The translations under genes and the position numbers were made by a program. The notes under the pieces are model-generated. The model saw only the letters and a list, made by a program, of their open reading frames with translations, ran no database searches and was not told the origin of the DNA. A stretch of DNA of 64,000 bases from Minisyncoccota bacterium (GTDB lineage Bacteria; Patescibacteriota; Minisyncoccia; Phycocordibacterales; UBA2135), in contig JBBDJW010000005.1 in assembly GCA_040879685.1 (NCBI GenBank), positions 21,741-85,740 on the forward strand. The letters run 5' to 3'. Below are positions 13,812-64,000 of the stretch, piece after piece; within the stretch, counting starts at the first letter, position 1, and the number at the start of each line of letters is the position of its first letter.

Positions 13812-13925
13812 ACATAAAGTATATCACAGAGCACGAGTCATATAATACGTAGTATGTTAGCCATGAGGCAGGAGGGGAAATTAAAAATTATCATTAGCCA
13901 AAGACCTTAATCACTAATCATTGAA

Positions 13926-15990: not shown

Positions 15991-16127
15991 AATCTCTTTA
16001 ATCTCTTTTTTTACTGGGCATATTTCTTTTTAGGTGTATGCCTCCCAAGAGATTTTTTATCTGTTATACTAGAATAATGTTGACTATCATACAGAATTTT
16101 GTTTTAAAAATCAAGTCTTTTCGCGAC

Positions 16128-17650: not shown

Positions 17651-17821
17651 GGTAAGGAATGATGGTGAGAATGCACTTCAAATTCGGTAAACAGATAAAT
17701 AGGTAAATACTACTCAAGACATTGAAAGGCTTCATAAAGACGACGCGCTTTCTTATCCCCTTCTTTTGAAAAAACATTCTCAAGCGCGCATAAAAAAGTA
17801 AAAAGTAATGCGTGCCAATCA

Positions 17822-17857
17822 CAATACTCCAATATTCTATAGAATGTTGGAGTATTG
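17822..17857. repeat. 36-bp near-perfect palindrome/hairpin CAATACTCCAAtattctatagaatgTTGGAGTATTG, a possible terminator for the minus-strand operon ending at 17879
   Basis: Arms of 11 bp are perfect and the centre is itself palindromic. A T-rich tract follows on the minus strand. Confidence 0.5.
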
Positions 17858-17878
17858 TGAAGAGTGTTTTTTATAAAA

Positions 17879-24820: not shown

Positions 24821-25047
24821 AATGGGGGCAGGAAATTATAAAACCGTCAAATTGTGCACTATCCAATGTTGAAATTAATTATGGAACTCACCCCAAGAGG
24901 AAAAACTTCTGGGAGAGGTATGCTTCTAAAACACCTCTGTAGAGCTGTTTTAGAGACTATTTTAGAGAAAGAATTTCTTCATAATTATATATTTGATGCT
25001 ATAGCATTAAATATATAATTTCCTCCGCCGAGAAATTATGCCTAAGT

Positions 25048-40171: not shown

Positions 40172-41161
40172 TTATATTTCTTCTCTTTCCTTAAAGACTT
40201 CTATAAGGGGGTCTAAGTTGCCTGCGAGCGTCTCCTCAATGGCATGCCAGCTTTTTTTAATACGATGATCGGTAATTCTATTTTGTGGAAAATTATAGGT
40301 TCGTATCTTTTCACTCCTATCAGCTGTGCCTATTTGTCCCTTTCTTTCTTGTGCATATTTTTTCGCCTCTGCCTCCTCCGTTTGCTGTTGGAGCTTGAGC
40401 TGTAAAAGAGACAGTGCCATATCCCTGTTTTTCTGCTGGGTTCTCTCTGCGGTACTTCTCACATCAATGCCTGTTGGCTTGTGAATAATGCGTACCGCTG
40501 TCTCTACTTTATTGACATTTTGTCCACCCGCACCGCCGGAACGAGAGAATTCCATCTCTAAATCAGCAGGGTCAATTTCAACAGTTATTTTTTTCCGAAC
40601 CGGCATGATCGCAACTGATGCTGTTGAGGTATGGATCCTTCCTGCTTTTTCTGTCGCAGGAATTCTTTGTACACGATGGACTCCCGTCTCATACCGTAGT
40701 CTCTTATAAACATCAAGGCCTTTAATTTCAAAAGAGGCTTCTTTGTATCCCCCGATTTCGTTCATTGATTCATTAAGCGTCCGCATCTTCCACCCCCGCC
40801 TCTCAGCGTAACGTGCATACATCTCTGCAAGCTCATAGGCAAAAAGAGTTGCCTCATCACCTCCCGCCCCCGCGCGAACTTCTAAAATAATCTGGTTTGG
40901 AAACACCTCTTCCTCTTCGTCTTTTTTTACAATTTCTTCCATCTGGAGAGAGAGAGTAGTCTTTTCCTCTTCTATCCTTTTACGCTCCTCTTGTGCAAGT
41001 GCTTCCATATCCTTGTTATCCTTCACCAGAGAGGAAAGCTCCTTCTCTTCGTCTAGAAGTTTTTGATACCGCTCTGCTAAAAATGCGGTCTTTTGATTTT
41101 GTTTATATTCTTCTAAATCCATAAAGTCTCTTGAGTATAGCGTATTGTGTATTGAGTACAA
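40172..41161 (-). CDS. prfA: peptide chain release factor 1
   Basis: [18 protein letters not shown] (PAT tripeptide, so RF1) and [11 protein letters not shown] (GGQ). Confidence 0.9.
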
Positions 41162-41164
41162 AGC

Positions 41165-41190
41165 AAACGGCTCACTATAGTGAGCCGTTT
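41165..41190. terminator. perfect 11-bp-stem hairpin AAACGGCTCACtataGTGAGCCGTTT between rpmE and prfA. No adjacent U-run on the minus strand, so it may be an RNA-processing or stability element rather than a terminator.
   Basis: Seen in the sequence. On the plus strand a T-run follows about 10 nt later. Confidence 0.35.
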
Positions 41191-43224: not shown

Positions 43225-43299
43225 ACACTCTAGTATAACAAATATCTAGCAATCTAAAGAGGGATAAAAACAACCCGCTGTGTGCGGGTTGCCAATACC

Positions 43300-46614: not shown

Positions 46615-46703
46615 TATCTTAGTATAACACCTCGCCTGCGCGTACTCCAGATGTCTACGTGAGTATTTATTTTATGAAAAGATATTCTACTATCAAGAAA
46701 ATT

Positions 46704-47288: not shown

Positions 47289-47362
47289 CCCATCTAGTAG
47301 TTTAATAATACCACCTCCTTTTGTAATGTACACCTCTAGGGTGAAAGGTTATACACAAATGG

Positions 47363-47431
47363 AAAATACCACCCGAAGGTGGTATTTTCCAGTGTACTTA
47401 TTTTATGCCCGGAGGCAAAAAATAAGTACAC
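47363..47431. repeat. two adjacent perfect hairpins with A/T flanks: AAAATACCACCcgaaGGTGGTATTTT (47363-47388) and GTGTACTTATTTT-N14-AAAATAAGTACAC (47392-47431)
   Basis: Seen directly. These are terminator-like, but no gene is immediately upstream on either strand. Confidence 0.6.
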
Positions 47432-47562
47432 CATGAGTATATAGATAGGATCTCTCTGTGTCAAATATAAAATCTTAAACCTGTGGAAAACTAAAAAATC
47501 CCCTTATTTTGCAGTAATTATTTCTTGTTGTTTAAACATTAAGTGTTGAGCATTTTTAAGTT

Positions 47563-47714: not shown

Positions 47715-48305
47715 TTATGCGACGGCGGTGCAAGCGGGAAAGATGATGGGGTGCTCGTCTGTAAAAGAGCATCCGCATTCTTTCTCGTGGAGTGACATCA
47801 GTTCGTCACGATGGCGAATAAGGGCTTCAGCGAGCTTACGATCAGCTTCAGCGCCCCTCCGACCAGCTTCAGCGCGCTTACGATTAGCTTCATCACGCTC
47901 CCGACGAGCTTCATCGTACTTCCGCTCAGCTTCAGCGAGCCTCCGATGAGCTTCATTCCACTCCCGATCAGCTTCAATGAGTCTCCGCTGAGCTTCATCA
48001 CGCTCCCGATTAGCTTCATCGTACTTCCGCTCAGCTTCAGCGAGCTTACACACAGCATCTTCAACCTCAGAAGGAATCTCTCCCATAACCGGTTTGAAGA
48101 GCTGGAGACGGAGCTCTCGTTCGTCTACGAATTTTTCCACGATACACGCCACCCGCTCCTTGTAATCCCAGCAGAACTCAATCGCTTCTTCGTTGTGATG
48201 CACATGCCAGTACATACCGGGAGTGAACGTTTTGATACGTTCATCAACAAGTTCTGCTGTCTCCTGGCTGACGCCTTTCACCTCACTCCAGTTTATACTT
48301 TCCAT
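47715..48305 (-). CDS. hypothetical protein with a tandem charged-repeat region (8-aa R..xEAxR periodicity, plus a 35-aa duplication) between unique N- and C-terminal segments
   Basis: Translation ...LAEAERKYDEANRERDEAQRRLIEADREWNEAHRRLAEAERKYDEARRERDEANRKRAEAGRRGAEADRKLAEA... The start is chosen at MESINW (48305), which has a GAGAGAGAGAAG purine tract upstream. No homolog recognised. Confidence 0.6.
   Translation of the reverse strand: MESINWSEVKGVSQETAELVDERIKTFTPGMYWHVHHNEEAIEFCWDYKERVACIVEKFVDERELRLQLFKPVMGEIPSEVEDAVCKLAEAERKYDEANRERDEAQRRLIEADREWNEAHRRLAEAERKYDEARRERDEANRKRAEAGRRGAEADRKLAEALIRHRDELMSLHEKECGCSFTDEHPIIFPACTAVA
47820..48060. repeat. intragenic tandem DNA repeats: 24-nt units containing AGCTTCA, and a 105-nt duplication (53-nt cores at 47888-47940 and 47993-48045, 2 mismatches)
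   Basis: Seen directly. Both periodicities are multiples of 3, so the reading frame is preserved. Confidence 0.8.
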
Positions 48306-48427
48306 CTTCTCTCTCTCTTGTTTGTGAATCTGTACACAGATTGTCATAGTGGAGTGTTTTTGTCAACCCCTCTACAACTCATCCAACGTCTAATGTTGGA
48401 CATTTTGTTTCAGCATAGCTTCTTTCA

Positions 48428-50165: not shown

Positions 50166-52810
50166 CGAATGGTTTTCTTATTTCTCTTTATTGCCTTTTC
50201 ATCAAGGACTTTTTTTAAATACCTTCCCGTAAGAGAATTTTTATCCTGTACCAGTGCTTCAGGAGTGCCTTGCGCGACCACCTTACCTCCTTTTTCTCCT
50301 CCAGAAGGACCAAAGTCAATAATATAATCAGCGCTTTTAATAATATCCATATTATGCTCAATCATCAAAACAGAATTGCCACGCGAAATGAGTTTTTGAA
50401 GTATTTCAATCAATTTTTTCACATCCTCATAATGAAGCCCTACGGTGGGCTCATCCAAGATATAAAGCGTCTTACTTGTAAGCGGACGATATAATTCTGA
50501 GGCAATCTTGACTCTCTGTGCCTCCCCTCCGGAGAGGGTCGTGGCAGGTTGGCCAAGTTCAAGATAACCAAGTCCCACCTCATCTAAGGTACTGAGACGG
50601 TCATAAATTGCTGGAATATCCTTGAAAAAAGAGAGGCTCTCCTCAACAGTCATTTTTAAACAATCATAAATTGATTTCCCTTTATATTTTACTTCAAGCG
50701 TCTCCTTTTGAAATCGTTTTCCTCCACACACATCACATGAGACATACACAGTCGGCAAAAAGTGCATTTCCACAGCAATAACTCCATTCCCCATACATGC
50801 CTCACACCTTCCTCCTTTCACATTAAACGAGAATCTCCCCGGCTTCCACCCTCGTTGGCGCGCCTCACTGGTGAGCGCAAAAAGATCTCTCATATGCGTA
50901 AAGGTGCCGGTGTACGTTGCCGGATTTGAACGAGGTGTTCTCCCAATGGGAGTTTGGTCAATCAAAGAAGTTCTGTTAATGTATTCTGCGCCTGTAAACG
51001 ATGTGCAGTTATAAACGGCGGGGTTATTTCTTTTTCGTTCAAATTTACTTTGTAGGTTTTTGTAAATAATCTCATAAACAAAGGATGATTTGCCTGAACC
51101 GGAGACGCCCGTCACTACACACATCCTCCCAAGTGGCACGGTAACATTTAGTTTTGTGATGTTAAAGACCTCTCCACCACGCACCTTAAGCGAGCCACGC
51201 TCTTCGCAACGACGCTTCTCCGGCAAAGGAACTTCCCTCTCCCCACGCAAATAATCAAGCGTCAATGATTGATACTTCTTTTTGTCTTTCAGCGCTGTTT
51301 CAAGTTCCTCTGAAACCATAACCTCCCCACCGTGAATACCGGCGGCAGGGCCAATGTCAACGATATAATCAGCAGAAAAAATAGTATCTTCATCATGCTC
51401 AACAACAATAATTGTGTTGCCGATATCACGTAAATCCTGCAGTGTTGCAATTAAACGGTCATTGTCGGAAGGATGAAGACCGATGGTCGGCTCATCCAAG
51501 ACATAGAGCGCGCCAACAAGGCGTGAGCCTAATTGTGAAGCAAGCCTCATGCGCTGTGCCTCACCGCCAGAGAGTGTATTTGCCCGCCTATTGAGCGTTA
51601 GATATTCAATGCCGACATTGATCATAAAAGAAAGGCGGCTGGTTATCTCGCGAATCACCATATTTGAAATTTCCTGTTCTGTCTCAGAAAGTTTTACTTT
51701 TTGGAAAAATTCGGTTGCGTTTTCAATAGAAAGTCCCACAAGGTCAACAATGTTTATTCCTCCATCTTGAGGCCCGGCACCAAGATAGACATGGAGTGCT
51801 TCTTTACGAAGTCGCGCACCCTGACATTCTGGGCATACTTCAACACCATTAAAAAAACGTGTTCCTAGTCCATTACATTCCGGACATGCGCCGGCAGGAG
51901 AGTTAAATGAAAAAAGCCGTGGCTCTATTTCAGGATATGAAAAGCCATCATACGGACACATAAATTTCGCACTCACAAGACGTTCTTTACTCGCCCCTCC
52001 CACACCTCCTTCTGGAATCTCAAAACGTATAAGCCCGTCGGTATGATGAAGCGCCCTCTCCAGCGCGTCAGAGAGCCGCTCACGCGCTGCATTTTTGTTG
52101 TCCTGAAATTCACTAATATAAAGCTCATCAACCACCACATCAATATCATGCTTTTTATTTTTATTCATCTCAATTCGTTCACGAAGTGCTTTCATGACGC
52201 CATCAATTCTAACTGTGCTATACCCTTTATCAAGTAAGTCATAGAGGAGTTGGTAATACTCCCCCTTTCGCCCCACAACAACAGGAGCGAAAATTCTCAC
52301 CTTCATAGCGTCTACAGCAACGCCGAGCACCTTCTTTGATTTTTGTTTTTTAGAAAGAGTAAGAACTTCTTCTGTAATAAGGTTTATAATTTCTTCATTT
52401 GAAAGCTTTTTAATTTCTCTGCCACACTCCAAACAGTGCGGTCTGCCGATGCGCGCATAAAGCACTCGCAGATAATCGTATATCTCCGTGATGGTGGCAA
52501 CGGTTGAGCGAGGATTTGATGAGGCCGATTTTTGGTCAATAGAAATTGCCGGTGAGAGTCCTGAAATTTCATCAACATCCGGCTTCTGCATTTGGCGTAG
52601 GAATTGTCGGGCATATGACGAAAGAGACTCAACATAGCGCCTCTGCCCCTCTGCAAAGATGGTGTCAAAAGCAAGTGATGACTTGCCCGAACCGGAAAGA
52701 CCTGTGAAAACAATCATTTTTTCGCGCGGAATCTCCACGGTGATATTCTTTAAGTTATGAGTTCGCGCACCCTTCACAACTATTTTTCCTTTATTATTTT
52801 TTTTCTCCAT
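50156..52810 (-). CDS. uvrA: excinuclease ABC subunit A
   Basis: Two ABC modules: [28 protein letters not shown], zinc fingers and LSGGE signatures. Start at MEKKNNKG (52810); the ORF-track extension to 52948 is rejected. Confidence 0.93.
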
Positions 52811-52830
52811 ACTACCTAAAAACACAAGAG

Positions 52831-52860
52831 CACTCCCCCGTCGTGTCCGTAGGGGGAGTG
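52831..52860 (-). promoter_or_regulatory. hairpin CACTCCCCC-N12-GGGGGAGTG immediately upstream of the uvrA ribosome-binding site (AGGUAG) and start codon; a possible attenuator or leader structure
   Basis: On the minus strand the stem is followed by CUCUUGUGUUUUUAGGUAGU-AUG. Confidence 0.4.
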
Positions 52861-52943
52861 TGTCTTTCTTTAATACTAGAAACCTACCATGAAATACCCC
52901 TAAGTACAACTCGCAGTAAACCTTTGTGCTTTCCATGGGATTA

Positions 52944-53079
52944 TGCAAAGAAAAAGCCGCGTCTTAAAAAGAGCGGCTTATATGGCGTTAGATTGAATCC
53001 CGGAGAAGCTCCGGTCTGCTGTAGTCCTTAGACCTTTGGTACAAGTATTAGACCCGCCTTCCGAAGTTCAATCTAACAA
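52944..53079 (-). ncRNA. candidate small RNA or structured leader of about 135 nt. 5' and 3' ends pair over 11 bp (GUUAGAUUGAA / UUCAAUCUAAC), there are internal hairpins, and it ends in an intrinsic terminator. Its identity is unknown.
   Basis: Minus strand, starting at the TSS: TTGCTT-N16-TATACT promoter (plus coordinates 53084-53111), then gttagattgaa (pairs with 52987-52997), CCGGAG/CTCCGG and GGUCU/AGACC hairpins, then terminator AAGCCGC-N12-GCGGCTT + UUUUUCUUU (52944-52979). No ORF. Not tRNA-like. Confidence 0.45.
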
Positions 53080-53083
53080 AAGC

Positions 53084-53111
53084 AGTATAGCAGATGGATA
53101 GTTTTAAGCAA
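53084..53111 (-). promoter_or_regulatory. sigma70-like promoter TTGCTT-N16-TATACT driving the candidate sRNA/leader
   Basis: Read on the minus strand. Confidence 0.4.
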
Positions 53112-53320
53112 CCCCATCTATGACCGCAGGTACTTTTGCACTCCGCTGGTAATTTCTCATAGTGTAGTAGTTTTCCAACCGGTGTCAGCTTGTTCCGTAT
53201 TGTAGAAGAGGAGCCACTACATACTATAGAGTATATGTGTTTATTACTTATAACGATAAGAACCTATACCCCATACTACGCTATAGCGTATAATAGGGTA
53301 TAGGTAGTAACTCAATAGAG

Positions 53321-53373
53321 GTGGTTATTAAAATATGGACATCGGATGTCCATATTTTAATAACCCAACCACC
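53321..53373. terminator. large hairpin/terminator downstream of uvrB. The core is a perfect palindrome AAAATATGGACATCgGATGTCCATATTTT (53330-53358), extended by GGTGGTTATT / AATAACC-CAA-CCACC.
   Basis: Seen directly. A/T flanks. 15 nt past the uvrB stop. Confidence 0.7.
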
Positions 53374-53388
53374 TAAAGACTAAGGGCT

Positions 53389-55410
53389 TCATGACTTCTC
53401 TTGGAGAGCAAGAATCTCATCACGCAGAAGTGCTGCCGTCTCAAAGTCTAAAATCTTAACCGCTTCGTTCATCTGACGCTCTTTTTCTTTGATGAGCTTC
53501 TTGGGTGCCCTTTTATAGAGATCTCGGTCAACTTCAAGAAGCGTTTTGAGCGCTCGCTCATGCTCGCTTTCAAGCTGTTGTGTAATATCATTAATCGCCT
53601 TCTTGATACCTTGCGGAGTAATGCCGTGTTTTTTATTGTATGCTTCTTGAATTTCTCGTCTACGCTGTGTCTCATCAAGCGCTCGTTGCATAGAGCCTGT
53701 TATCTTATCGGCATAGAGAATCACTTTTCCATTGATATTACGCGCCGCACGGCCAATGGTCTGAATGAGAGATGTCTCGCTCCGTAAAAATCCCTCTTTA
53801 TCAGCATCCAGAATCCCAATAAGAGAAACCTCCGGCAAATCCAGTCCTTCCCGCAAAAGATTCACTCCCACAAGACAATCAAACACCCCCCTTCTAAAAT
53901 CAGTAAGTATTTTTATTCGTTCAATTGTTTTGACATCGCTGTGCACAAACTCCGCCTTCACACCCTTTTCATTAAGGTAAGTTGTCAAATCTTCTGCCAT
54001 GCGCTTGGTAAGCGTTGTTACCATCGTACGATCTCCCTTTTTCACCACGCGCACTGCCTTGTCAATAAAGTCATGAATCTGCCCTTTATACTCACCCTTT
54101 TCAATAACTCCACAAACGACAAGCTCGGGGTCCAAAAGCCCCGTAGGGCGTATCACCTGCTCAACAATGTGCATCGGATCGGTGTTTTCTCTTTCATATG
54201 CTCCGGGAGTTGCCGAAGTGTAGAGTCGTTGCCCCACACGTTCCTCAAATTCATAAAATTTCAAAGGACGGTTATCAAGCGCTGAAGGAAGTCTGAAACC
54301 ATGTTCTACTAAATTTTTCTTTCGTGAAGCATCTCCTACATGCATACCCGCAAGCTGAGGGATGCTAACATGAGACTCATCTATAATGGTCAAGAAATCC
54401 GCGCTTCCGTCCTTGTTTCTAGGAAAGTATGAAAGAAGTGTATCGGGCGCTTCGCCTTTTTTCTTGCCAGAGAGATGTCGTGAATAATTTTCAATGCCGT
54501 TACAATACCCAACTTCACGAAGAAGTGTGATGTCGCCTTTTGTTCTGCGTACAAGTCTGTCTGCCTCAAGAATTTTGCCCATATCCTGAAGCTCTTTTAC
54601 TCTTTGTTTTAGTTCGGCTTGTATGTTTTTAATCGCTCCCTCCAATCGTTCTTTGTTAGTAACAAAATGCTTTGCCGGAAAAAGATAATATATATCAACT
54701 TCTTCAAGTATGGTGTTGCTTACAGGATCAATCTTCACAATGCGAGAAACCTCATCTCCATCAAGCTCAACGCGAAATGTCTGCCTCACATTAACCGGCA
54801 TAATCTCAACCACGTTGCCGATAACCCGAAAGTATCCCGGAGTAAGATCAGCTGGCGTCCTTTCAAAATACAAAGAAACGAGGAGCCTTAAAAATTCCTT
54901 TCTACTTGCCTTCATTCCTTTTTTAATCTCCAAGTGCTCTTTTCTATACTCATCAGGACTTCCTAATCCATAGATTGCAGAGACAGAAGCAACCACAATA
55001 ACATCACGTCTGCTTAAAAGGTCTTGCGTTGTCGCGTGCCGAAGGCGGTCAATCTCTTCATTGACCTGTGCTTCTTTTTCAATATAGGTGTCTGAAATAG
55101 GAACATACGCCTCCGGTTGGTAATAATCATAATACGAAACGAAATAGTGCACCGCATTATTTGGAAAAAAATCTCGGTATTCCTGTACAAGCTGAGCGGC
55201 AAGCGTCTTATTGTGAGCAATGATAAGCGTTGGCTTATTTATACGCTCAATAATATTTGCCGCCGTAAATGTCTTACCTGAACCCGTCACACCCAAAAGC
55301 GTCTGGTGCTTTACACCGGTTTTAATGCCACGATACAGTGCCTCAATCGCCTTAGGCTGGTCGCCTTCCGGTTTGTAGTGCGAGGAAAGTTCTAGATTTT
55401 TTTGCGCCAT
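53389..55410 (-). CDS. uvrB: excinuclease ABC subunit B
   Basis: LLGVTGSGKTFTAANIIERINKPTLIIAHNKTLAAQL, helicase motifs and a UVR domain at the C-terminus. 673 aa. Confidence 0.95.
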   Translation of the reverse strand: MAQKNLELSSHYKPEGDQPKAIEALYRGIKTGVKHQTLLGVTGSGKTFTAANIIERINKPTLIIAHNKTLAAQLVQEYRDFFPNNAVHYFVSYYDYYQPEAYVPISDTYIEKEAQVNEEIDRLRHATTQDLLSRRDVIVVASVSAIYGLGSPDEYRKEHLEIKKGMKASRKEFLRLLVSLYFERTPADLTPGYFRVIGNVVEIMPVNVRQTFRVELDGDEVSRIVKIDPVSNTILEEVDIYYLFPAKHFVTNKERLEGAIKNIQAELKQRVKELQDMGKILEADRLVRRTKGDITLLREVGYCNGIENYSRHLSGKKKGEAPDTLLSYFPRNKDGSADFLTIIDESHVSIPQLAGMHVGDASRKKNLVEHGFRLPSALDNRPLKFYEFEERVGQRLYTSATPGAYERENTDPMHIVEQVIRPTGLLDPELVVCGVIEKGEYKGQIHDFIDKAVRVVKKGDRTMVTTLTKRMAEDLTTYLNEKGVKAEFVHSDVKTIERIKILTDFRRGVFDCLVGVNLLREGLDLPEVSLIGILDADKEGFLRSETSLIQTIGRAARNINGKVILYADKITGSMQRALDETQRRREIQEAYNKKHGITPQGIKKAINDITQQLESEHERALKTLLEVDRDLYKRAPKKLIKEKERQMNEAVKILDFETAALLRDEILALQEKS

Positions 55411-55458
55411 AGAAATGGAGTATAGCGCAAAGAGAGGTTTTATAAAAATGCCTGAACC

Positions 55459-55494: not shown

Positions 55495-55690
55495 TTATGC
55501 AAAGGAGGACTTTACCCCCAGCGCTTGCCCCGCCATCTGGAAATACATACCCGGCAGTAATACAATGTCCAAAATCTGATTTATGACATTGTTTTGAAAT
55601 TTTGGACACTCCTTGTATCATAAAAACATTCAAACATTATTGATAATGTTTAAATGTTTTACTCTCTTCTCTACTACTGCCGACCGACCA

Positions 55691-55849
55691 CCTGCCGGCA
55701 GGCCTTATACACGCTTTCTCCTCACCACTTTACTTTAAAATTATATATTCAGACCTATAGGTCTGAATATATAATTTTCTCTCTCTTCACTCCTTTCTAC
55801 CTGCCGGCAAGCAGACTCCTCCCTCCTCATTCCCTCTCTGCCGGCAAGT
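55691..55849. promoter_or_regulatory. three copies of the palindromic core TGCCGGCA (CCTGCCGGCAGG at 55691-55702, CTGCCGGCAAG at 55801-55811 and 55838-55848) in a CT-rich tract, flanking a 42-bp perfect A/T-flanked palindrome
   Basis: Seen directly in the sequence. Confidence 0.5.
55737..55778. repeat. 42-bp perfect palindrome AAAATTATATATTCAGACCTA|TAGGTCTGAATATATAATTTT (possible bidirectional terminator)
   Basis: Seen directly. Downstream of the trxB and small-ORF transcription unit. Confidence 0.6.
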
Positions 55850-55883
55850 TTACCCTTTATTACACCTATACAAAATACCTATA

Positions 55884-56099
55884 CTAAATCACTCCTATCT
55901 CCAATAGATAACCAGCAACGACAAGCACAACGCCCGACCAGCCGACAAACTGCTCTATCTTCATTGTTGTAAAAACTTTTCGGTCAATTTTATGTTCACG
56001 CAATACGCGATGATGTACCCGAAGCGCGGCATAAGCAATAAAGAGTGTCCCAAGAACCTCAAGAGTAAGTCCCATGTTGCTTGTTATTGCACCTATCAT
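55884..56099 (-). CDS. hypothetical small membrane protein (71 aa, 2 predicted TM segments)
   Basis: Lies immediately downstream of trxB on the same strand. Hydrophobic segments LTLEVLGTLFIAYAAL and GWSGVVLVVAGYLLEIGVI. Uncertain. Confidence 0.35.
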   Translation of the reverse strand: MIGAITSNMGLTLEVLGTLFIAYAALRVHHRVLREHKIDRKVFTTMKIEQFVGWSGVVLVVAGYLLEIGVI

Positions 56100-56102
56100 A
56101 AA

Positions 56103-57086
56103 TTATTTTTGTATGAGCTTATGTTTGGAAGGTTGTTGATGAAGTGGACACAAATCACCATGCTTTTTTATCTCTTCATAAGCTGAAGTGGCGGCAAGCG
56201 CTCCTGATGCGGCGGCAGTGATGGCCTGCTTAAAAGAACCAAAGTGGTTCATAGTATCCCCCGCAACCAAAAGTCCATCAACACCTGTGTGCATTGTGGC
56301 ATCAACTTCAATATAACCATGCTTGCCGAGCTTTACGCCAAGCGGTTTTACAAGCTCCACATGAGGAACATATCCTATCTGAACAAACAAAGCATCAACA
56401 ACAAGCTCCTTGCTTCCGTTAAATGCCTTTGTAAGAATTACCTTTTCAAACTTTTCATCTCCCACAATTTCTTTTACTTCCGTTTCCTGCAAAACCTCTA
56501 CTTTTTCTCCCACCCTCTCAAGATTCTCACGGTTAACCGGCTCGCCTGAGAGCGTCGCTTCGCGGTTTATGATATACACTTTTTCTGCATACTCTGAAGC
56601 GAGTGTCGCGGCCTTCACCGCGCTGTCTCCCCCACCAGCAATCGCGATTTTTTTGCCGGTATAGAGCGGGCCGTCGCACGTAACACAATAATGAACTCCT
56701 TTGCCTGTGAGCTCTTTTTCATTAGGGATGTTGAGTTTTCTGCTTTCAGCCCCACCGGCAAAGATAACAACTGTTGCGTGATAGCGCTCATCTCCCGCCA
56801 TCAATGTAAAGCAATGATTTTCTTTTTTTAAGCTCTTTACTTCCGTGCTTTTAAATTCTGCCCCAACTTCTTTGGCTTGCTCTTTCATAATTTTTGTGAG
56901 CTCATAGCCGTCAAGCGACTTCACACCAGGGTAGTTGGCAATTTTCCCCGCCGTTGCCGTCTCACCTCCCGGCTCTTTCTCAAAAACAACCGTATCAAGC
57001 AAGTAACGCCCGCAATAGAGACCCGCCGCAAGGCCTGCAACACCGGAGCCAATAATGGCAACGTCATAGATATTTTTTTTCTCCAT
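56103..57086 (-). CDS. trxB: thioredoxin-disulfide reductase
   Basis: IGSGVAGLAAGLY (FAD), CVTCDG redox motif and a second Rossmann motif GGGDSA. Start at MEKKNIYDV (57086). Confidence 0.88.
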   Translation of the reverse strand: MEKKNIYDVAIIGSGVAGLAAGLYCGRYLLDTVVFEKEPGGETATAGKIANYPGVKSLDGYELTKIMKEQAKEVGAEFKSTEVKSLKKENHCFTLMAGDERYHATVVIFAGGAESRKLNIPNEKELTGKGVHYCVTCDGPLYTGKKIAIAGGGDSAVKAATLASEYAEKVYIINREATLSGEPVNRENLERVGEKVEVLQETEVKEIVGDEKFEKVILTKAFNGSKELVVDALFVQIGYVPHVELVKPLGVKLGKHGYIEVDATMHTGVDGLLVAGDTMNHFGSFKQAITAAASGALAATSAYEEIKKHGDLCPLHQQPSKHKLIQK

Positions 57087-57273
57087 TACGTTTATAATAC
57101 CACGCCAGGAGGACATTGGGTGAGCACGTGTGGATATCCCGATAGAGTAAAAGGTTAAGGGTATGTGTTTTTTTAGACACGCACGCCCAACTAATCGCAC
57201 GTTCTTACTCCTCAATCTTTCGGCTCTGATTTTGTATGTTATGTACCGCACTGCTCTATGCTACAATAAAAAC

Positions 57274-58272
57274 ATGAACAACATTGATTTTCTTGCAATT
57301 GGTGACATAACCGCCGACGCGTTTATACGCCTTTCGGGGAATGATGCCGATATAATAAAAAATCCCAATGAAGAAGGGAGTAAAATTTGCTTTAATTTTG
57401 GCGATAAAATTGAATATGATTTTGTAAAACAAGTCTATGCTGTCGGTAATAGCCCCAATGCGGCAGTTTCTGCTGTACGGCTTGGACTCTCTTCATCTCT
57501 CCTTGCTAACGTAGGGAAGGATGATCTGGGGGAAAAGACCATTGCAACGCTAAAAGAAAACGGAGTTACTACATCCCTTATTCGCACTCACGCCGGTAAA
57601 AAAACAAATCAGCATTATGTCCTCTGGTATGGCGCGGAACGCACTATTCTCATCAACCACGAAGAATATCCGTATGAGCTTTCCAATATTGGAGATCCTC
57701 AATGGATTTATTTTTCATCCTTAGGAGAGAAGTCAATTGAGTTTCATCATGCGCTTGCCGCATGGCAAAAAGAGCATCCCAAAACAAAGCTTGCCTTTCA
57801 GCCGGGAACATTTCAAATTCGTCTTGGGAAAGACAAGCTCAAAGACCTCTACGAAGTAACTGAACTCTTTTTTTGTAATGTACAGGAAGCGCAACGTATT
57901 TTAGAAACTGAAGAATCTGATATTAAAGCGCTTTTGAAAAGCATGTGTGCACTCGGGCCACGCATCTCTATCATCACCGACGGTCCGCGCGGTGCCTATA
58001 CCTACGATGGAGAAGAAATCTGGCATATGCCAATGTATCCAGACCCGAAAGAGCCGCTTGATAGAACCGGTGCGGGTGATTCCTTTGCGAGCACCTTTAC
58101 CGCAATGCTCGCACTCGGAGAGAGTGTCCCCGAGGCGCTTCGTCGCGCTCCTATTAATTCAATGTCTGTCGTTCAGTATATCGGCGCACAAGAAGGCCTC
58201 CTCTCGCGCGAGGTACTTGAAGAGCATCTCAAAAACGCTCCCGCTGACTATAAAGCAACTAAAGTAGAGTAG
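57274..58272 (+). CDS. PfkB-family carbohydrate/nucleoside kinase (ribokinase-like)
   Basis: DRTGAGDSFASTF (PfkB signature 2) and an N-terminal GD..D motif. ATG at 57274. Confidence 0.8.
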   Translation: MNNIDFLAIGDITADAFIRLSGNDADIIKNPNEEGSKICFNFGDKIEYDFVKQVYAVGNSPNAAVSAVRLGLSSSLLANVGKDDLGEKTIATLKENGVTTSLIRTHAGKKTNQHYVLWYGAERTILINHEEYPYELSNIGDPQWIYFSSLGEKSIEFHHALAAWQKEHPKTKLAFQPGTFQIRLGKDKLKDLYEVTELFFCNVQEAQRILETEESDIKALLKSMCALGPRISIITDGPRGAYTYDGEEIWHMPMYPDPKEPLDRTGAGDSFASTFTAMLALGESVPEALRRAPINSMSVVQYIGAQEGLLSREVLEEHLKNAPADYKATKVE

Positions 58273-58277
58273 AAAAA

Positions 58278-58305
58278 CAATCCCTGGACATCCGATGTCC
58301 GGGGG
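58278..58305. terminator. hairpin CCCTGGACATCcGATGTCCGGGG, a terminator for murF (minus strand, followed by UUGUUUUUCU) and probably also for the PfkB gene
   Basis: Shares the core GGACATC(S)GATGTCC with the uvrB terminator at 53330-53358. Confidence 0.6.
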
Positions 58306-58341
58306 TTACTATACTCAAACACCTATTGTATATTTGTACGA

Positions 58342-59640
58342 TTACCGCTCTTGCCATTCCTTTTCCTGACGGACAAGCAGATGTTCTGCGTTCTCTTTAT
58401 CAGCAAGCAACTGCACAAGCGCTTTTTCCATCCGTATGCTTTGTGATGCCTTCAGAAGCACAACATCTCCTTCTTGTATAAAATCTGCCAGAAACTCCCC
58501 CGCTTCTTCCGAGCTTGCAAAATGATAGATATTTTTCTTGAGCATCTTTTTACGATATGCCTCTTCGCCCGCAAGTTCTGCGCGATGCCCCACACTCACA
58601 AGAATGTCTGCGTTGACCTTGGCAAGTGCTCCCATTTTTTTATGCTCATCGGCAGTGTACTTCCCAAGCTCAAGCATGTCTCCCAAAACCGCAATTTTCC
58701 TCCCTTGGGTCTTAATCTCACCAAGCGCCTCTAGTGATGCACGAAGCGCGGTTGGTGATGAGTTATAGGTGTCGTCAATAAGTGTTGTCCCCTTCACTCC
58801 TTCTAAGAGTTTCCCGCGCCCGGGTGGTAAAGATCGCTTACCAAGAATCTCAAGCATTTCAACCATATTCATCCCTAACGTGACGCCCACCGAAAAGGCG
58901 GCAAGAGCAGAGTAAATAGAAGCAATGCTAACACTTTCCATAATGCGCAACGGCAAAACCTTGTCACCATACTCTATGCGACAGCCAACTCCTTTCACCC
59001 TTCCTTTCTCGTCATATAATAATTCTTTATTCAAGGCTCTTACCATCGCTTCGCGGGCAAACCCAAACGAGATCACCTTCTTTTCTGGAATAGTTTGAAT
59101 AAGCCGTTTGACATCTTTATCATCAATAGTAAGAACCGCCGTTTTGCCCTCTTTAAGCACCTGTATAAGCGATGCTTTCTCTTCAATCAATGCTTCCCGA
59201 GACGGAAAAAACTCTATATGGACCGGTACATCGCCAAAGCGAGTAATAACGGCAATATCAGGCTTAAGCCAACGAGTGATCCGTGGAATATCTCCAGGGC
59301 GATCTGTCCCTACCTCAAGAACAAGTATTTTAGGATAATGATTTTTTAAAACAATCAGAAGTATTCCTTCAATGAGAATCTTAAACCATGTAGAGGCATT
59401 GTTCCAGCCACTCTCACAACCAAGGATGGTAAGTGGCACACCAAACTCGCTATTAAAACTTTTTTTACTTCTCTGTACAAAATATTTTTTTTCCAAAACA
59501 TCCGCGATAGCATCCTTACTTGTCGTCTTCCCTACGCTTCCCGTAATGGCAATAATCATTGGCTTATACTTACGCAGTACAAGCCATGCCTCAAAGGTAA
59601 GTAAAAAAATAATAATTGATTTAAATACTTTTTTAACCAT
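58342..59640 (-). CDS. murF: UDP-N-acetylmuramoyl-tripeptide--D-alanyl-D-alanine ligase. The usual N-terminal domain is replaced by a short TM segment.
   Basis: IAITGSVGKTTSKD P-loop at residue about 30. DDTYNSSP...RKIAVLGDMLELG is the MurF hallmark. Confidence 0.8.
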   Translation of the reverse strand: MVKKVFKSIIIFLLTFEAWLVLRKYKPMIIAITGSVGKTTSKDAIADVLEKKYFVQRSKKSFNSEFGVPLTILGCESGWNNASTWFKILIEGILLIVLKNHYPKILVLEVGTDRPGDIPRITRWLKPDIAVITRFGDVPVHIEFFPSREALIEEKASLIQVLKEGKTAVLTIDDKDVKRLIQTIPEKKVISFGFAREAMVRALNKELLYDEKGRVKGVGCRIEYGDKVLPLRIMESVSIASIYSALAAFSVGVTLGMNMVEMLEILGKRSLPPGRGKLLEGVKGTTLIDDTYNSSPTALRASLEALGEIKTQGRKIAVLGDMLELGKYTADEHKKMGALAKVNADILVSVGHRAELAGEEAYRKKMLKKNIYHFASSEEAGEFLADFIQEGDVVLLKASQSIRMEKALVQLLADKENAEHLLVRQEKEWQER

Positions 59641-59648
59641 AAAAGGGT

Positions 59649-61361
59649 TTAGCGATCCGGAGGAATTTCATAATAGGTAAGAAGAAATTTCATAATATCC
59701 ATAAAAGGATGAGTGAGTGTTTCTGAGGCATAACGAACTCCTTGAGGGTCAAGTATGTAGAGAAATACTAAAAACTTTGGTTCATACGCAGGCGCATACC
59801 CAAAAAACGAATGGAGGTGCCTGTCATCATAATACCCGCCCTCATCTTCTTTAGCAATTTGTGCTGTTCCTGTTTTTGCAGCAATGCTATAGCGAGGAAG
59901 CGCTACTACTCCGCCCAAAAGAGCTTCGTCAACCACTTCTACAAGCATCCTCGTTACCTCATAGGTACTTTCCTCTCGAAAGACACGCGTACGATCCCCA
60001 AATGAAATAAGTTGTATCGGGCGCAAGTCTCTCTCTATTGCATAGCCAGCATGGGGTGTAAGCATAACTCCTCCATTGGCCAGAGACGAGAGCGCACGCA
60101 CCATGGTGATTGGGGTTGTCGCAATACCTTGACCAAATGAAGCGGTTGCAAATTCAATATCACGAGAGCTCTCCAAGTTATTAACGAGCCCCCTCACCTC
60201 ACCGGGAAGGTCAATGCCTGTTTCTTCTCCAAATTCAAGTTTTTTAAAATATTCTCGAAACACATCTCTCCCCACTTCCTGCATAATGTGGACAGCTCCT
60301 GTATTGAGCGATTGATTTAAAATTTCCTGTAAGGGAACAATACCGCGCGCTTTTCCATCATAGTTTTCAATTCGCGCACTGTTAAGAACCACAAATCCTT
60401 TATCATTATACGTATCGTCTGAAGAGAGCGCACCACTATCAATTCCTACTGCCATAGTAAGTGGCTTCATGATAGAGCCAAACTCATAAACATTCTCAAC
60501 GAGAGGGTTGCCAAAGAGTGAAATGTCGGATTCTTCCTTGAATGTGTTTGGGTTAAAGGAGGGTCGTGAAGCCATGGCGTAGAGTGAGCCATCGGTTGGA
60601 TTTATGATAATACCCCCTGCGCCTCGCGCCCCATACTTTGTCATAACTTCAGCAAGAGTATTTTCAAGTATTTGCTGAACCTGTGGCTCAAGAGAGAGTA
60701 CAATATCACCCTCTCCTTTATTTTTATAAAAAAGGGTTTGTTCTATGTTTGCAAAAACTTCAGCAAAAAAATTTATATAGAGGTCTTTTTTGTCTCTTTG
60801 TAAAATATCATTATAATATCGCTCAACCCCATAGCGTCCACTAACTATGTCTCCTTTATACCCTATAAAACCAAGAACGTGCGCCGCTCTTTCTCCCCAT
60901 GGATAAAAACGCCACCTTCTCTTCTGCACAATAACTCCGGGAAGAGAAAGCGCGCTCACCCTTTCCGCCTCTTCTTTGCTCACTTTCTCTAAGAGTTCTT
61001 CATAGGGATCATCCTTCTTCCCCGCTCTAAAGAAAAAATCACCCTCTTCTAACGAGGGGAAAATGAGGGAGAGCTCTTTATACACTTTCCTTGCATCAGA
61101 AAGAACGCGAGGATTTATAGCAATAGTATAGCCGATCTGAAGTGTTGCTGCTGAAATGCGTGAACCGTCTTTTTGTTTAAAATAAATAAAGCCACGATCA
61201 TAAATATCCTGAGAAGGAGATACGTATTGACGATCAGCACGAAGCGCAAAAGATTCACCCTGGAGAATCTGAACAAAAAAAAGTTTCGTAATAAGCAAGC
61301 CAGCAATAAAAAGAGTGACTATATAAAAAAGAGTACTTCTCGTTCTAAACGAATTATTCAT
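59649..61361 (-). CDS. ftsI: penicillin-binding protein (transpeptidase, FtsI/PBP2-like)
   Basis: N-terminal TM segment. SxxK (GSIMKP), SxN (SLNTG) and KTG (KTGTA) motifs. Position in the dcw cluster. Confidence 0.85.
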   Translation of the reverse strand: MNNSFRTRSTLFYIVTLFIAGLLITKLFFVQILQGESFALRADRQYVSPSQDIYDRGFIYFKQKDGSRISAATLQIGYTIAINPRVLSDARKVYKELSLIFPSLEEGDFFFRAGKKDDPYEELLEKVSKEEAERVSALSLPGVIVQKRRWRFYPWGERAAHVLGFIGYKGDIVSGRYGVERYYNDILQRDKKDLYINFFAEVFANIEQTLFYKNKGEGDIVLSLEPQVQQILENTLAEVMTKYGARGAGGIIINPTDGSLYAMASRPSFNPNTFKEESDISLFGNPLVENVYEFGSIMKPLTMAVGIDSGALSSDDTYNDKGFVVLNSARIENYDGKARGIVPLQEILNQSLNTGAVHIMQEVGRDVFREYFKKLEFGEETGIDLPGEVRGLVNNLESSRDIEFATASFGQGIATTPITMVRALSSLANGGVMLTPHAGYAIERDLRPIQLISFGDRTRVFREESTYEVTRMLVEVVDEALLGGVVALPRYSIAAKTGTAQIAKEDEGGYYDDRHLHSFFGYAPAYEPKFLVFLYILDPQGVRYASETLTHPFMDIMKFLLTYYEIPPDR

Positions 61362-61405
61362 ACTGATATACCTCTCTAAGCACTGTCCAAGCTCTCCTCA
61401 GATGA

Positions 61406-61726
61406 CTATTCTATACCAAGATTCCCAACAAGTTGTCGCTGAGATGCAAAGACTTGATTGCGAGGTTCATTAAAACCAAGTATATAAGCCTTTTGATACG
61501 TGATGTAGCTTCTTAGTGCGCCATACTCCCTCTCAAGCTCTCCCACCTGTGCAATAAGCTCTCCCATTTCATGCTCAAGAGACTCTCGCTGTACAATATT
61601 AATGATAAGTGCATTCACAAGATATCCGTATGCCATAAAAAAAACAACTACCAAGCACGCAAGGGAGATAACCAGCTGTTTCTTATTTATGTGGATAACG
61701 TTTTCAATGGATTTCATTTTTTTCAA
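61406..61726 (-). CDS. ftsL: cell division protein FtsL-like (TM segment plus short coiled coil)
   Basis: 106 aa. Sits between rsmH and ftsI. TM helix LACLVVVFFMAYGYLV. Confidence 0.6.
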   Translation of the reverse strand: MKKMKSIENVIHINKKQLVISLACLVVVFFMAYGYLVNALIINIVQRESLEHEMGELIAQVGELEREYGALRSYITYQKAYILGFNEPRNQVFASQRQLVGNLGIE

Positions 61727-62603
61727 TAATTCTTAATTTTGCGCTTCGTGATTTGGGATTGTGCTCTCGCTCATAAGCGCTCGGAGTAATAGGTTTTTTA
61801 TGTATATGTGTGTACGTGCCGTTTTCAACCCACTTCTTAAATGTTTGTTTTACTATCCTATCCTCAAGAGAATGAAATGAGATGACTGCGACGCGACCAT
61901 GTGGTTTTAAAATTTCTGGAACCTGTTCTAAGAGTGCTTCAAGCGCTGAAAGTTCATCATTAACTGCAATGCGAAGTGCTTGAAAGACTCTTGTAGCTCT
62001 ATGTCCTCCTCCCCGGCGCGGCCCGGCAGGAACGCTTTTTAAAATAAGCTCTTGTAAATCTTTTGTTGTATCAAGAGGATGTTCTTTCCGCGTGGCAAGA
62101 ATAGTATCAGCTATCTTGGAGGCAAAAGGTTCTTCTCCGTATTCTTTAAAAATCTGCACAAGATCTTTCTTTCCCCAGCGATTAACTATTTCATAAGCAG
62201 TAAGAGCTCCTGTAGGAAAATCTTTTGTAAAGGTCATAAGAAGTGGTTCATCTTTTCTGAATGAAAAACCTCTTCCAGATTGTTCAATCTGCTCTGTCCG
62301 TAAGCCTAAATCAAGCACAAGGGCATCTATGGTGTTAAAAGAAAGCTTGGTAAGTATCTCTTTTAGATTCCTAAAATTTCCTTGTACAAAATGCTTTTCT
62401 GTCGGGAAACTCTTCAATCGTCTTTCCGCCTCTTTTAGTGCCGTCTCATCCTCGTCAATGCCAATCAGAACCCCTTTCTCACCGATAATTTCGCATATTT
62501 TTAAGGCATGGCCACCGTTACCGAGTGTGCCATCAACAACGACAAAGCCTCTCTTTAGATTCAAGCCTTTAATAACCTCTTGTAAAAGAACACTCTCGTG
62601 CAT
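61704..62603 (-). CDS. rsmH: 16S rRNA (cytosine1402-N4)-methyltransferase RsmH/MraW
   Basis: MHESVLLQEVIKGLNLKRGFVVVDGTLGNGGHA. Confidence 0.9.
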   Translation of the reverse strand: MHESVLLQEVIKGLNLKRGFVVVDGTLGNGGHALKICEIIGEKGVLIGIDEDETALKEAERRLKSFPTEKHFVQGNFRNLKEILTKLSFNTIDALVLDLGLRTEQIEQSGRGFSFRKDEPLLMTFTKDFPTGALTAYEIVNRWGKKDLVQIFKEYGEEPFASKIADTILATRKEHPLDTTKDLQELILKSVPAGPRRGGGHRATRVFQALRIAVNDELSALEALLEQVPEILKPHGRVAVISFHSLEDRIVKQTFKKWVENGTYTHIHKKPITPSAYEREHNPKSRSAKLRIIEKNEIH

Positions 62604-62608
62604 GAAAA

Positions 62609-63043
62609 TTAGATCGCTCCAATCTCACCCAATTTTTCGGCAAGTGTATCTGCTTGGGTTTCAATATGTTTCTTGTAATCATTCCATGCCTTCTCGCCCC
62701 AAATCTCAACGTGCCCCCCTACTCCTACCAACACCACCTTACTTTTAAGTCCCGCAAACTCTTTCAAAAAATCAGGAACAAGAATTCTCCCAAGAGAATC
62801 AATGGAGGCATCAAGTGCGCCGGAGAGCATAAAACGAGTAAACCCTCTTGTATCTTTCTGCCCCATTGAAAGGGCACTTAATTTCTCTGCGACCTTTTCC
62901 CACTCTTTCTTTGAATAAACATATAAACAGTTATCAAAGCCGCGAGTAATGACAATGTTCTTACCAAATTCCTTTCTGAATTTCACAGGCAATGAAAGCC
63001 TTTTTTTCGCATCAATACTGTGTCTGTATTCACCAATCAACAT
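62609..63043 (-). CDS. mraZ: transcriptional regulator MraZ
   Basis: MLIGEYRHSIDAKKRLSLP and a second DxxxR-type repeat (GRILVP). ATG at 63043 is preferred over the GTG at 63052. Confidence 0.85.
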   Translation of the reverse strand: MLIGEYRHSIDAKKRLSLPVKFRKEFGKNIVITRGFDNCLYVYSKKEWEKVAEKLSALSMGQKDTRGFTRFMLSGALDASIDSLGRILVPDFLKEFAGLKSKVVLVGVGGHVEIWGEKAWNDYKKHIETQADTLAEKLGEIGAI

Positions 63044-63046
63044 ATT

Positions 63047-63092
63047 TCCCACTATTTACCACTTTCTTAAATTATATACTACTTTCTCCCAC
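63047..63092 (-). promoter_or_regulatory. putative MraZ operator/promoter: GTGGGA (63087-63092), TATAAT -10 hexamer (63071-63076), GTGGTA (63057-63062), GTGGGA (63047-63052)
   Basis: Read on the minus strand. Box spacings of 30 and 10 bp fit the known 10-bp phasing of MraZ TGGGN repeats. Confidence 0.4.
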
Positions 63093-63115
63093 TTCACTAA
63101 AAAGTTATCCACATC

Positions 63116-63154
63116 AATAAACCGCTAAAATCTAAAAGATTTTAGCGGTTTATT
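63116..63154. repeat. 39-bp perfect hairpin/palindrome AATAAACCGCTAAAATCTaaaAGATTTTAGCGGTTTATT upstream of the dcw operon promoter
   Basis: 18-bp perfect arms, seen directly. Confidence 0.6.
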
Positions 63155-63239
63155 GGTTTCTGAGAGTCTCTAGCTTTTCCAAAAGGCATGGTACAAGAGC
63201 GTCTCGGTGCACTTGCAAGGTTGTGCCTTTAAAAGGTTA

Positions 63240-63263
63240 CTTACTTCAGTTAACTGAAGTAAG
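63240..63263. repeat. 24-bp perfect palindrome CTTACTTCAGTTAACTGAAGTAAG
   Basis: Seen directly. Lies in the intergenic region between greA and mraZ. Confidence 0.6.
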
Positions 63264-63443
63264 TCGTCTTTCAAACTTCACTCTCTAAATGCAGGGGTAT
63301 CTTTTTGTCCGAATCATCTCATTTCTTGGAGGTAACCTTGTTTAAAGCCCGACTTTAAAACAAGGTGAGTATTTGGATAATTGTAACGCACCTCTGTACC
63401 GCTCGTATAGTGTGTTAGCAACACATACGCCGAAGGGTGTAGA

Positions 63444-63929
63444 TTACGCAATTTTGATGACACTATAGGAAATATCTCCTTTCGGTGACCGGCAAAGCGC
63501 TTCCTCACCTTTTTTCTTTCCCATAAGTGCTTCACCTAACGGACAGCGATTTGAAATTTTTCCTTCTACAATATTTGATTCTTCCGCTCCAACAATTTCG
63601 TACGTCTTTGTAGAACTCTCTCCCTCCTTCTTAAGTGTTACCACCGAACCAATAGAGACAGAGTCAATCTTGTGATCCAAGACAACAACGGCGTTTTTAA
63701 GAACTGCCTCAATGGTGGCAATCCGCTCTTCAATACCGGCTTGTGCATCTCGCGCTTCCTGGTATTCAGCATTTTCTGATAGGTCGCCGAGGGATTTTGT
63801 GTATTCAAGCTTATCCGCAATTTCTTTTCGTTTTTCTGTTTTGAGCGTTTTAAGTTCTTTTGTAAGCTCATTTTGTTTCTCTTGACTTAAATATATTTTC
63901 CCCTCTTCGGCATTTTTTGCAATATCCAT
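63444..63929 (-). CDS. greA: transcription elongation factor GreA
   Basis: Coiled-coil N-terminus with GDLSENAEYQEARDAQ and a C-terminal FKBP-like domain. Confidence 0.88.
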   Translation of the reverse strand: MDIAKNAEEGKIYLSQEKQNELTKELKTLKTEKRKEIADKLEYTKSLGDLSENAEYQEARDAQAGIEERIATIEAVLKNAVVVLDHKIDSVSIGSVVTLKKEGESSTKTYEIVGAEESNIVEGKISNRCPLGEALMGKKKGEEALCRSPKGDISYSVIKIA

Positions 63930-64000
63930 AATAGTAATTGTTTATTCTTATAGTTTATTCTTATATAGGTTTGGTTGATTATATACACAAATGGCTAAAT

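Follow-up and report, generated by a model that had tools for sequence, protein, structure and literature searches.

What lies between uvrB and uvrA in this Candidatus Paceibacterota genome? The spacer separating the two genes (53388-52811, 578 nt) is the longest non-coding stretch of the window, by which we mean the whole 64 kb of DNA analysed here (42% G+C). The genome is compact, intergenic DNA making up about 8.6 kb (13%) of the 64 kb. On the minus strand of the spacer, a promoter-like sequence, a long RNA fold and a terminator follow one another closely, and the original prediction took these together as an independent small RNA or, alternatively, as an attenuator-type leader of uvrA. The best explanation appears to us to be a lineage-specific, independently transcribed gene for a small non-coding RNA of about 131 nt, a reading whose chances we would put at about even. 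The promoter class, the fold, the terminator, the freedom from ORFs and the unit's separateness from the uvrA module are shown in silico; transcription of the unit, the exact positions of its ends and any function are matters that we infer from the features set out below.

The spacer and its features

At this site the genes run in the order PBP, Mur ligase, PfkB, thioredoxin-reductase-like protein, (a 71-aa ORF), uvrB, spacer, uvrA and uvrC, an order that is the same in the nearest relative (locus L081). uvrB occupies 55410-53389 of the minus strand, with its 3' end at 53389. The ATG of uvrA is at 52810 on the same strand, 135 nt past the terminator of the unit and, as had been noticed, behind a second hairpin (52860-52831). 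The features on which the argument turns, all on the minus strand, are these:

53106-53111, minus strand: -35-like hexamer TTGCTT (three of six matches to TTGACA; own promoter scan)
53084-53092, minus strand: extended -10 element TGCTATACT, of the recurrent TGnTATA[A/C]T class
53077, minus strand: predicted transcription start, G, placed by the -10-to-ATG spacing at leaderless genes
52987-53077, minus strand: imperfect rod of 91 nt, with helices of 11, 10 and 5 bp (minimum free energy -32.2 kcal/mol)
53018-53049, minus strand: apical 32 nt of the rod, AAUACUUGUACCAAAGGUCUAAGGACUACAGC, weakly structured (pair probabilities 0.28-0.63)
52980-52986, minus strand: 7-nt linker GCCAUAU from rod to terminator, read from the sequence
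52947-52979, minus strand: intrinsic terminator, made up of an 11-bp stem in which a single C is bulged (52979-52954) and the U-tract UUUCUUU (52953-52947)
52881-52889, minus strand, outside the unit: TGGTAGGTT, the candidate promoter of uvrA, in the place taken in relatives by TGGTATACT, TGGTATCAT or TGGTATAAA
52831-52860, minus strand, outside the unit: uvrA leader hairpin CACUCCCCC-N12-GGGGGAGUG with a U-rich tract, a conserved feature before uvrA in Patescibacteria

Promoter, fold and terminator

The promoter first described, TTGCTT (53111-53106), a 16-nt spacer and TATACT (53089-53084), can be read exactly so. In addition, the spacer ends in TGC, with TG at 53092-53091, so that the -10 is of the extended kind (TGcTATACT); the -35 is weak, agreeing with the consensus at three of six positions. 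A consensus promoter and terminator scanner listed neither this promoter nor the unit's terminator. How credible, then, is the promoter? In our own scan, intergenic DNA carries sigma70-like sites scoring at least 10 at about five times the density of coding DNA. Of the 10 copies of TGnTATA[A/C]T in the window, six are in the intergenic 13%; five of these precede a start codon of the same strand by 7-19 nt, and the sixth is that of the rod. At the copies at 46629, 43240 and 13826 the distance from TATACT to ATG is 6-7 nt, which is leaderless spacing, and a fourth copy with the same spacing (16062) was counted as coding by the ORF list used. uvrB itself has TATACT 8 nt before its own ATG. TGnTATA[A/C]T therefore looks like a working promoter type in this genome, and the unit's promoter seems credible on the same sequence grounds.

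If the leaderless -10-to-ATG spacing (6-7 nt) is carried over to the unit, transcription is predicted to begin where the closing helix does, at G53077: six bases separate TATACT from GUUAGAUUGAA, and G53077 is the seventh nucleotide past the -10. A promoter of its own, placed at the 5' end of the RNA as befits an independent small RNA gene, is thereby found, in silico. As an observation in its own right, the extended -10 boxes (TGnTATACT) lying 6-8 nt upstream of ATGs, at 46621-46629, 43232-43240, 13818-13826, 16062-16070 and 55419-55424 (the last being that of uvrB), imply leaderless mRNAs for several genes of this genome.

The helix on which the start would fall consists of GUUAGAUUGAA (53077-53067) and the perfectly complementary UUCAAUCUAAC (52997-52987). 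These are the 11 perfect pairs originally proposed, except that the partner comprises nucleotides 81-91 of the RNA and not 80-90. The partition function gives a single rod in which helices of 11, 10 and 5 bp are stacked, parted by single-nucleotide bulges and one 3-nt loop; its 26 lower pairs have probabilities of 0.81-1.0, and those of the closing helix 0.95-1.0. For the 91-nt element the folding energy is -32.2 kcal/mol (z = -4.4), which none of 200 shuffled sequences equalled, and element and terminator together come to -47.9 kcal/mol (z = -4.0). The multi-stem interior of the original prediction has to be given up in favour of this one long imperfect rod with its 32-nt apex. The hairpin CCGGAG/CUCCGG has a pair probability of 0.01 and is 3 kcal/mol worse, and the UUCG of the supposed cUUCGg stem-loop is base-paired within the second helix of the rod (probability 0.81-0.99), the bases that flank C-UUCG-G being, by eye, A and A, which cannot extend a stem. 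The pairing of GGUCU with AGACC stands (p about 0.95). In the modelled fold the apical 32 nt are a candidate functional or seed region, a role given to them by inference.

The plus strand folds nearly as well (-30.5 kcal/mol, z = -4.0). With so little difference between the strands, the rod amounts in essence to an imperfect palindrome of DNA, with a 32-nt centre that is non-palindromic. We estimate that chance alone would yield about two 11-bp inverted repeats (within 150 nt) per 64 kb, or about 0.02 per 580-nt spacer, so the helix alone is weak evidence; its exact juxtaposition with promoter and terminator is beyond what chance gives.

Seven nucleotides after the helix begins the terminator hairpin, AAGCCGCUCUU-UUU-AAGA(C)GCGGCUU, that is, AAGCCGC(UCUU-UUU-AAGA-C)GCGGCUU, which folds at -13.3 kcal/mol (z = -3.9). 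It is the predicted AAGCCGC/GCGGCUU terminator, with the additions that its stem carries a bulge and that its U-tract reads UUUCUUU. That tract is peculiar to the minus strand (on the plus strand the corresponding hairpin runs into AUAUGG), and promoter and terminator thus indicate the same strand. No ORF of at least 20 aa is present on the minus strand of the unit, again as predicted, and the small ORFs of the whole spacer (18-62 aa, both strands) all lack a plausible start context, none of them resembling a membrane toxin. An intrinsic terminator at the 3' end and freedom from ORFs thus accompany the promoter, as they should in an independent small RNA gene. LexA/Cheo-type boxes were sought by eye in the spacer and none was seen.

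Other structured units and palindromes occur in the window. On the minus strand at 47355-47464, TTGACA-17-TATACT is followed by an 18-bp hairpin (47431-47392) at the predicted start and then, at 47391-47355, by a UUCG-looped hairpin of terminator-like appearance that ends in a U-rich tail, the whole, of about 78 nt, being orphan and free of ORFs; this suggests that promoter-hairpin-terminator units recur in the genome. Two very long hairpins lie immediately after the uvrB stop, also on the minus strand (53322-53366 and 53261-53306, with stems of 21 bp and 13+5 bp), neither having a clean U-tract. Near-perfect palindromes without a spacer, centred on CTATAG, are found at 17819-17860, 24983-25020, 41161-41190, 53262-53305 and 55737-55778: of the window's 17 CTATAG sites, five are at the centre of palindromes with arms of 10-22 nt, all of them in intergenic DNA or at its edge. 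There are also three small families of repeated intergenic palindromes (24974-25025 with 55730-55781; 17629/30064/30098; 24797/25045). In the first pair the arms AATTATATATT...AATATATAATT are kept, and the centres differ in a compensatory manner (TGATGCTA|TAGCATTA against CAGACCTA|TAGGTCTG). The spacer upstream of uvrB (55690-55850, minus strand) contains the palindrome TGCCGGCAG three times, twice in a longer context (CTGCCGGCAGG or CTTGCCGGCAG). An independently assembled Logan contig of the same population, from SRR27977663, is 100% identical to the window over 8252 nt (55749-64000) and ends inside the perfect palindrome at 55737-55778, which suggests that such palindromes break short-read assemblies of the organism. 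Elsewhere, a 210-aa ORF (47715-48347) without a Pfam match contains at least 10 tandem copies of a 21-nt unit (seven codons) at 47803-48096.

Relatives of the locus and the uvrA module

Does the unit belong to a known family, or have relatives? The whole window has no match to any of the 4227 models of Rfam 15 at the gathering threshold. At E <= 10 over 52700-53500, the sole match overlapping the element was to suhB/mmgR, which spans the 3' arm, the linker and the terminator (52940-53010) with 15.3 bits against a threshold of 41. ARAGORN found no tRNA or tmRNA gene in the window.

For comparative purposes, 80 genome loci were gathered from a UvrB scan, to which seven closest relatives were then added by exact-protein look-up. 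Among 89 loci (22 of them from Patescibacteria) no homologue of the rod was found by blastn, nhmmer or a single-sequence covariance model R1, and pairing by MAFFT with L081, which has the one short syntenic spacer, gave a meaningless alignment. Patterns of the element were also sought more widely. The arms pattern had no match in viral contigs, and in metagenomes two matches with unrelated interiors, about the number expected by chance; the loops-only pattern gave 99 chance matches in viral contigs, none with pairing; the purine/pyrimidine-coded core had no match in JGI metagenomes; and nothing in phage and plasmid collections matched the element. A soil-metagenome contig that shares the 11-nt arms by chance (L184:871-963) holds an unrelated element, a 21-bp inverted repeat around several TGTTCA copies, and with TGAACA in the opposite arm. 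The helices therefore have no conservation or covariation in relatives to their credit, the original prediction having counted the want of both against itself, and this is a weak test: apart from one 100% identical protein, annotated from a Candidatus Paceibacterota MAG, the next best UvrB among 5.8 billion clusters is 71% identical, and the best genome loci, all from Patescibacteria, reach at most 65%. With such a ceiling, absence from relatives shows only a lack of deep conservation. The only other assembly of the population, the Logan contig, is 100% identical. Nor did targets emerge from a comparison of the apical loop with the 58 gene starts of the window, in which 34% of shuffled loops scored as well and the uvr genes were not prominent; whole-RNA duplex folding was uninformative. 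Our literature search found no description of a small RNA of this kind in Patescibacteria.

The order and orientation of uvrB and uvrA are unchanged throughout the seven closest relatives, but the intervening DNA is entirely different in each:

L081, between uvrB and uvrA: 390 nt with no called gene
L186, between uvrB and uvrA: one 107-aa ORF
L082, between uvrB and uvrA: HicAB and RelB/YafQ modules, plus a kinase
L083, L187, L188 and L189, between uvrB and uvrA: four to six unrelated genes each

This cargo includes toxin-antitoxin modules and two-component systems; no integrase was seen in it (window, L081-L083, L186-L189). On the sequence evidence, the uvrB-uvrA spacer appears to be a hypervariable cargo site in Paceibacterota.

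Immediately before uvrA the picture is one of conservation. An extended -10 is present there in L081 (TGGTATACT), L188 (TGGTATCAT), L186 (TGGTATAAA) and the window (TGGTAGGTT), and in all four it is 24-27 nt from the C-run of a hairpin, the order of the module being TGGTAnnnT, 24-27 nt, C-run/G-run hairpin, U-rich tract and ATG. The hairpin, 10-27 nt upstream of the ATG, is present in eight or nine of 16 loci (the window and 15 relatives from Patescibacteria): at 52831-52860 in the window, L081:8372-8397, L082:8480-8501, L188:11410-11437, L005:4507-4528 and L003:4198-4216, in bulged versions in L186 and L189, and in one more case with CC only. A strict scan for C3/G3 hairpins found 162 in 285 kb of both strands (window and Patescibacteria loci), six of which fall within the roughly 110 nt upstream of uvrA in the 16 loci, against about 0.5 expected. 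This hairpin is without an Rfam match; for uvrA it might serve as attenuator, operator or stability element. Upstream of the module come the rod and its terminator, in the place where relatives have independent cargo units with terminators of their own (in L186, for instance, the 107-aa gene, with its terminator, comes before the promoter of uvrA), and this position favours a separate transcription unit over an attenuator of uvrA.

What kind of element the unit may be

Might the promoter TGCTATACT nevertheless serve mainly uvrA, with rod and terminator forming a 267-nt leader at which transcription stops only in part or under control (that of a protein, for example), and the small RNA a by-product? 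Promoter, structured RNA, terminator and gene in one orientation are the classic layout for such control, and the -10 of the proximal candidate TGGTAGGTT is weaker than those of the relatives, so that uvrA might need read-through. Yet no antiterminator pairing could be made out by eye, at most 5 bp being available between the rod and the 5' arm of the terminator, and the probabilities in the closing helix make switching unlikely. Moreover, 135 nt and a second terminator-like hairpin separate the terminator from the ATG, and the rod is missing from the uvrA leaders of 15 of 15 relatives, among which it is the proximal promoter-hairpin module that recurs. The attenuator alternative of the original prediction is weakened by that conserved module, which lies downstream of the terminator and would be uvrA's own, and we now consider it unlikely. 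Quite unlikely, too, in our estimation, is that rod and terminator are a stabiliser or insulator and the end of the uvrB 3' UTR, the promoter-like motif being incidental or minor. The terminator at 52979-52947 is indeed the first canonical one downstream of uvrB, the two hairpins that intervene (53366-53322 and 53306-53261) having no clean U-tract, and long hairpins are common in the spacers of this genome. Against this, a 3' UTR of 440 nt would be unusual for a compact genome, and the probability that a copy of the genome's strongest promoter motif should by chance put +1 on the first base of the helix is about 0.007 (our own estimate, for a 20-nt target at intergenic density). This reading would in any case be compatible with a small RNA of the 3'-UTR type, with its own promoter and a shared terminator.

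It could also be supposed that the rod is functionless DNA, a decaying repeat or the remnant of a mobile element or recombination scar, perhaps transcribed by accident. The near-equal folding of the two strands, the several families of long intergenic palindromes in the genome, the cargo that differs in every relative and the element's want of conservation would all agree with this. The rod, however, is present in a single copy in 64 kb and is unlike any palindrome family of the window; it is flanked by CUUUU and GCCAU, with no target-site duplication; its arms pattern recurred only in the two chance-level, unrelated metagenome matches; its 32-nt centre is non-palindromic; and its exact framing by promoter and terminator would not be expected of a scar. 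We rate this origin as improbable. The independent small RNA gene remains the preferred reading. Of the architecture from which it was first proposed, the promoter, the closed hairpin and the terminator are real; the multi-stem interior is not supported, and neither is any conservation.

Compared with stand-alone small RNA genes of other bacteria, the unit has in common its own promoter, lack of an ORF, length of about 130 nt, terminal hairpin with U-tract, intergenic position and restriction to a lineage. It differs in that its 26-bp rod takes in the very 5' end, where those RNAs have a single-stranded seed, and in that no seed or target could be assigned to the predicted unit, while no chaperone context is known from candidate phyla radiation bacteria. 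Small RNAs of the DapZ/MicL type arise from 3' UTRs by means of an internal promoter and share the terminator of the mRNA. Like them, the unit is downstream of a gene in the same orientation and has its own promoter, and its terminator may be the first canonical one of uvrB; unlike theirs, its promoter is 280 nt beyond the uvrB stop and not inside the coding region. With attenuation leaders and riboswitches it shares the sequence of promoter, structured RNA, intrinsic terminator and downstream gene in one orientation, but it has no antiterminator, its 11-bp closing helix is very stable, and it is not conserved with uvrA. With REP and MITE palindromes it shares an imperfect palindrome, terminal inverted arms of 11 bp (18 nt at 83%), a location in a variable spacer and a palindrome-rich genome, but it is single-copy in 64 kb, without flanking duplication, and has a non-palindromic 32-nt centre and the framing by promoter and terminator.

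Two further families were considered and rejected. Small SRP RNA (4.5S RNA, RF00169) is also a rod of about 100 nt with paired ends and a stand-alone gene, and ACCA, AGG and AGCA can all be picked out in the apex of our element. SRP RNA is marked by a GNRA tetraloop and by symmetric (AGG/AGCA) and asymmetric (ACCA) loops in canonical order, as in E. coli 4.5S RNA. Here the model was not matched even at E <= 10 and the loop is UAAG, not GNRA; by inspection against the E. coli RNA, ACCA and GGUC come out of order, no helix separates ACCA from AGG, and a 4-nt insertion precedes AGCA, with no symmetric loop. Integron attC hairpins, read 5' to 3', open with RYYYAAC and close with GTTRRRY, AAC and GTT being on the inner side; the arms GTTAGAT...ATCTAAC of the rod show the reversed order on both strands.

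How might such an RNA work? According to the preferred reading, that of an independent small RNA gene, the extended -10 promoter would start transcription at G53077 in the uvrB-uvrA spacer, on the minus strand, and the RNA would run to about 52947. The nascent transcript would fold into the 26-bp imperfect rod with its 5'-terminal nucleotide in the first helix, and a 5' end buried in this way may shield the RNA from 5'-end-dependent RNases. The rod would display the largely single-stranded apical region of 32 nt, and the terminator, 7 nt downstream, would free the RNA and insulate the uvrA promoter beyond. The likeliest mode of action, put forward tentatively, would be in trans, the apical region pairing with another RNA or binding a protein. 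It is a long shot that this unit and that at 47464-47355 belong to a group of small hairpin RNAs peculiar to candidate phyla radiation bacteria. The RNAs of such a group would have their 5' ends enclosed in a long helix and would reside in hypervariable spacers, alongside toxin-antitoxin and other accessory cargo, and they might serve as, for example, RNA antitoxins, decoys or defence-related RNAs.

As a single orphan without conservation, and a candidate from sequence, the element changes no current view; plausibly it is an ordinary candidate of a familiar kind, with no detectable relatives. The cells of the Paceibacterota group cannot be grown alone, and to our knowledge regulatory RNA is almost unstudied in them, as in reduced, host-dependent candidate phyla radiation bacteria in general. 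If it is transcribed, the unit would be one of very few concrete candidates for a small RNA gene in Paceibacterota with a defined promoter, start and terminator. Perhaps more useful than the element itself are the by-products of its analysis: a TGnTATACT promoter motif at leaderless distance from start codons, a hypervariable site between uvrB and uvrA, and a conserved leader hairpin of uvrA.
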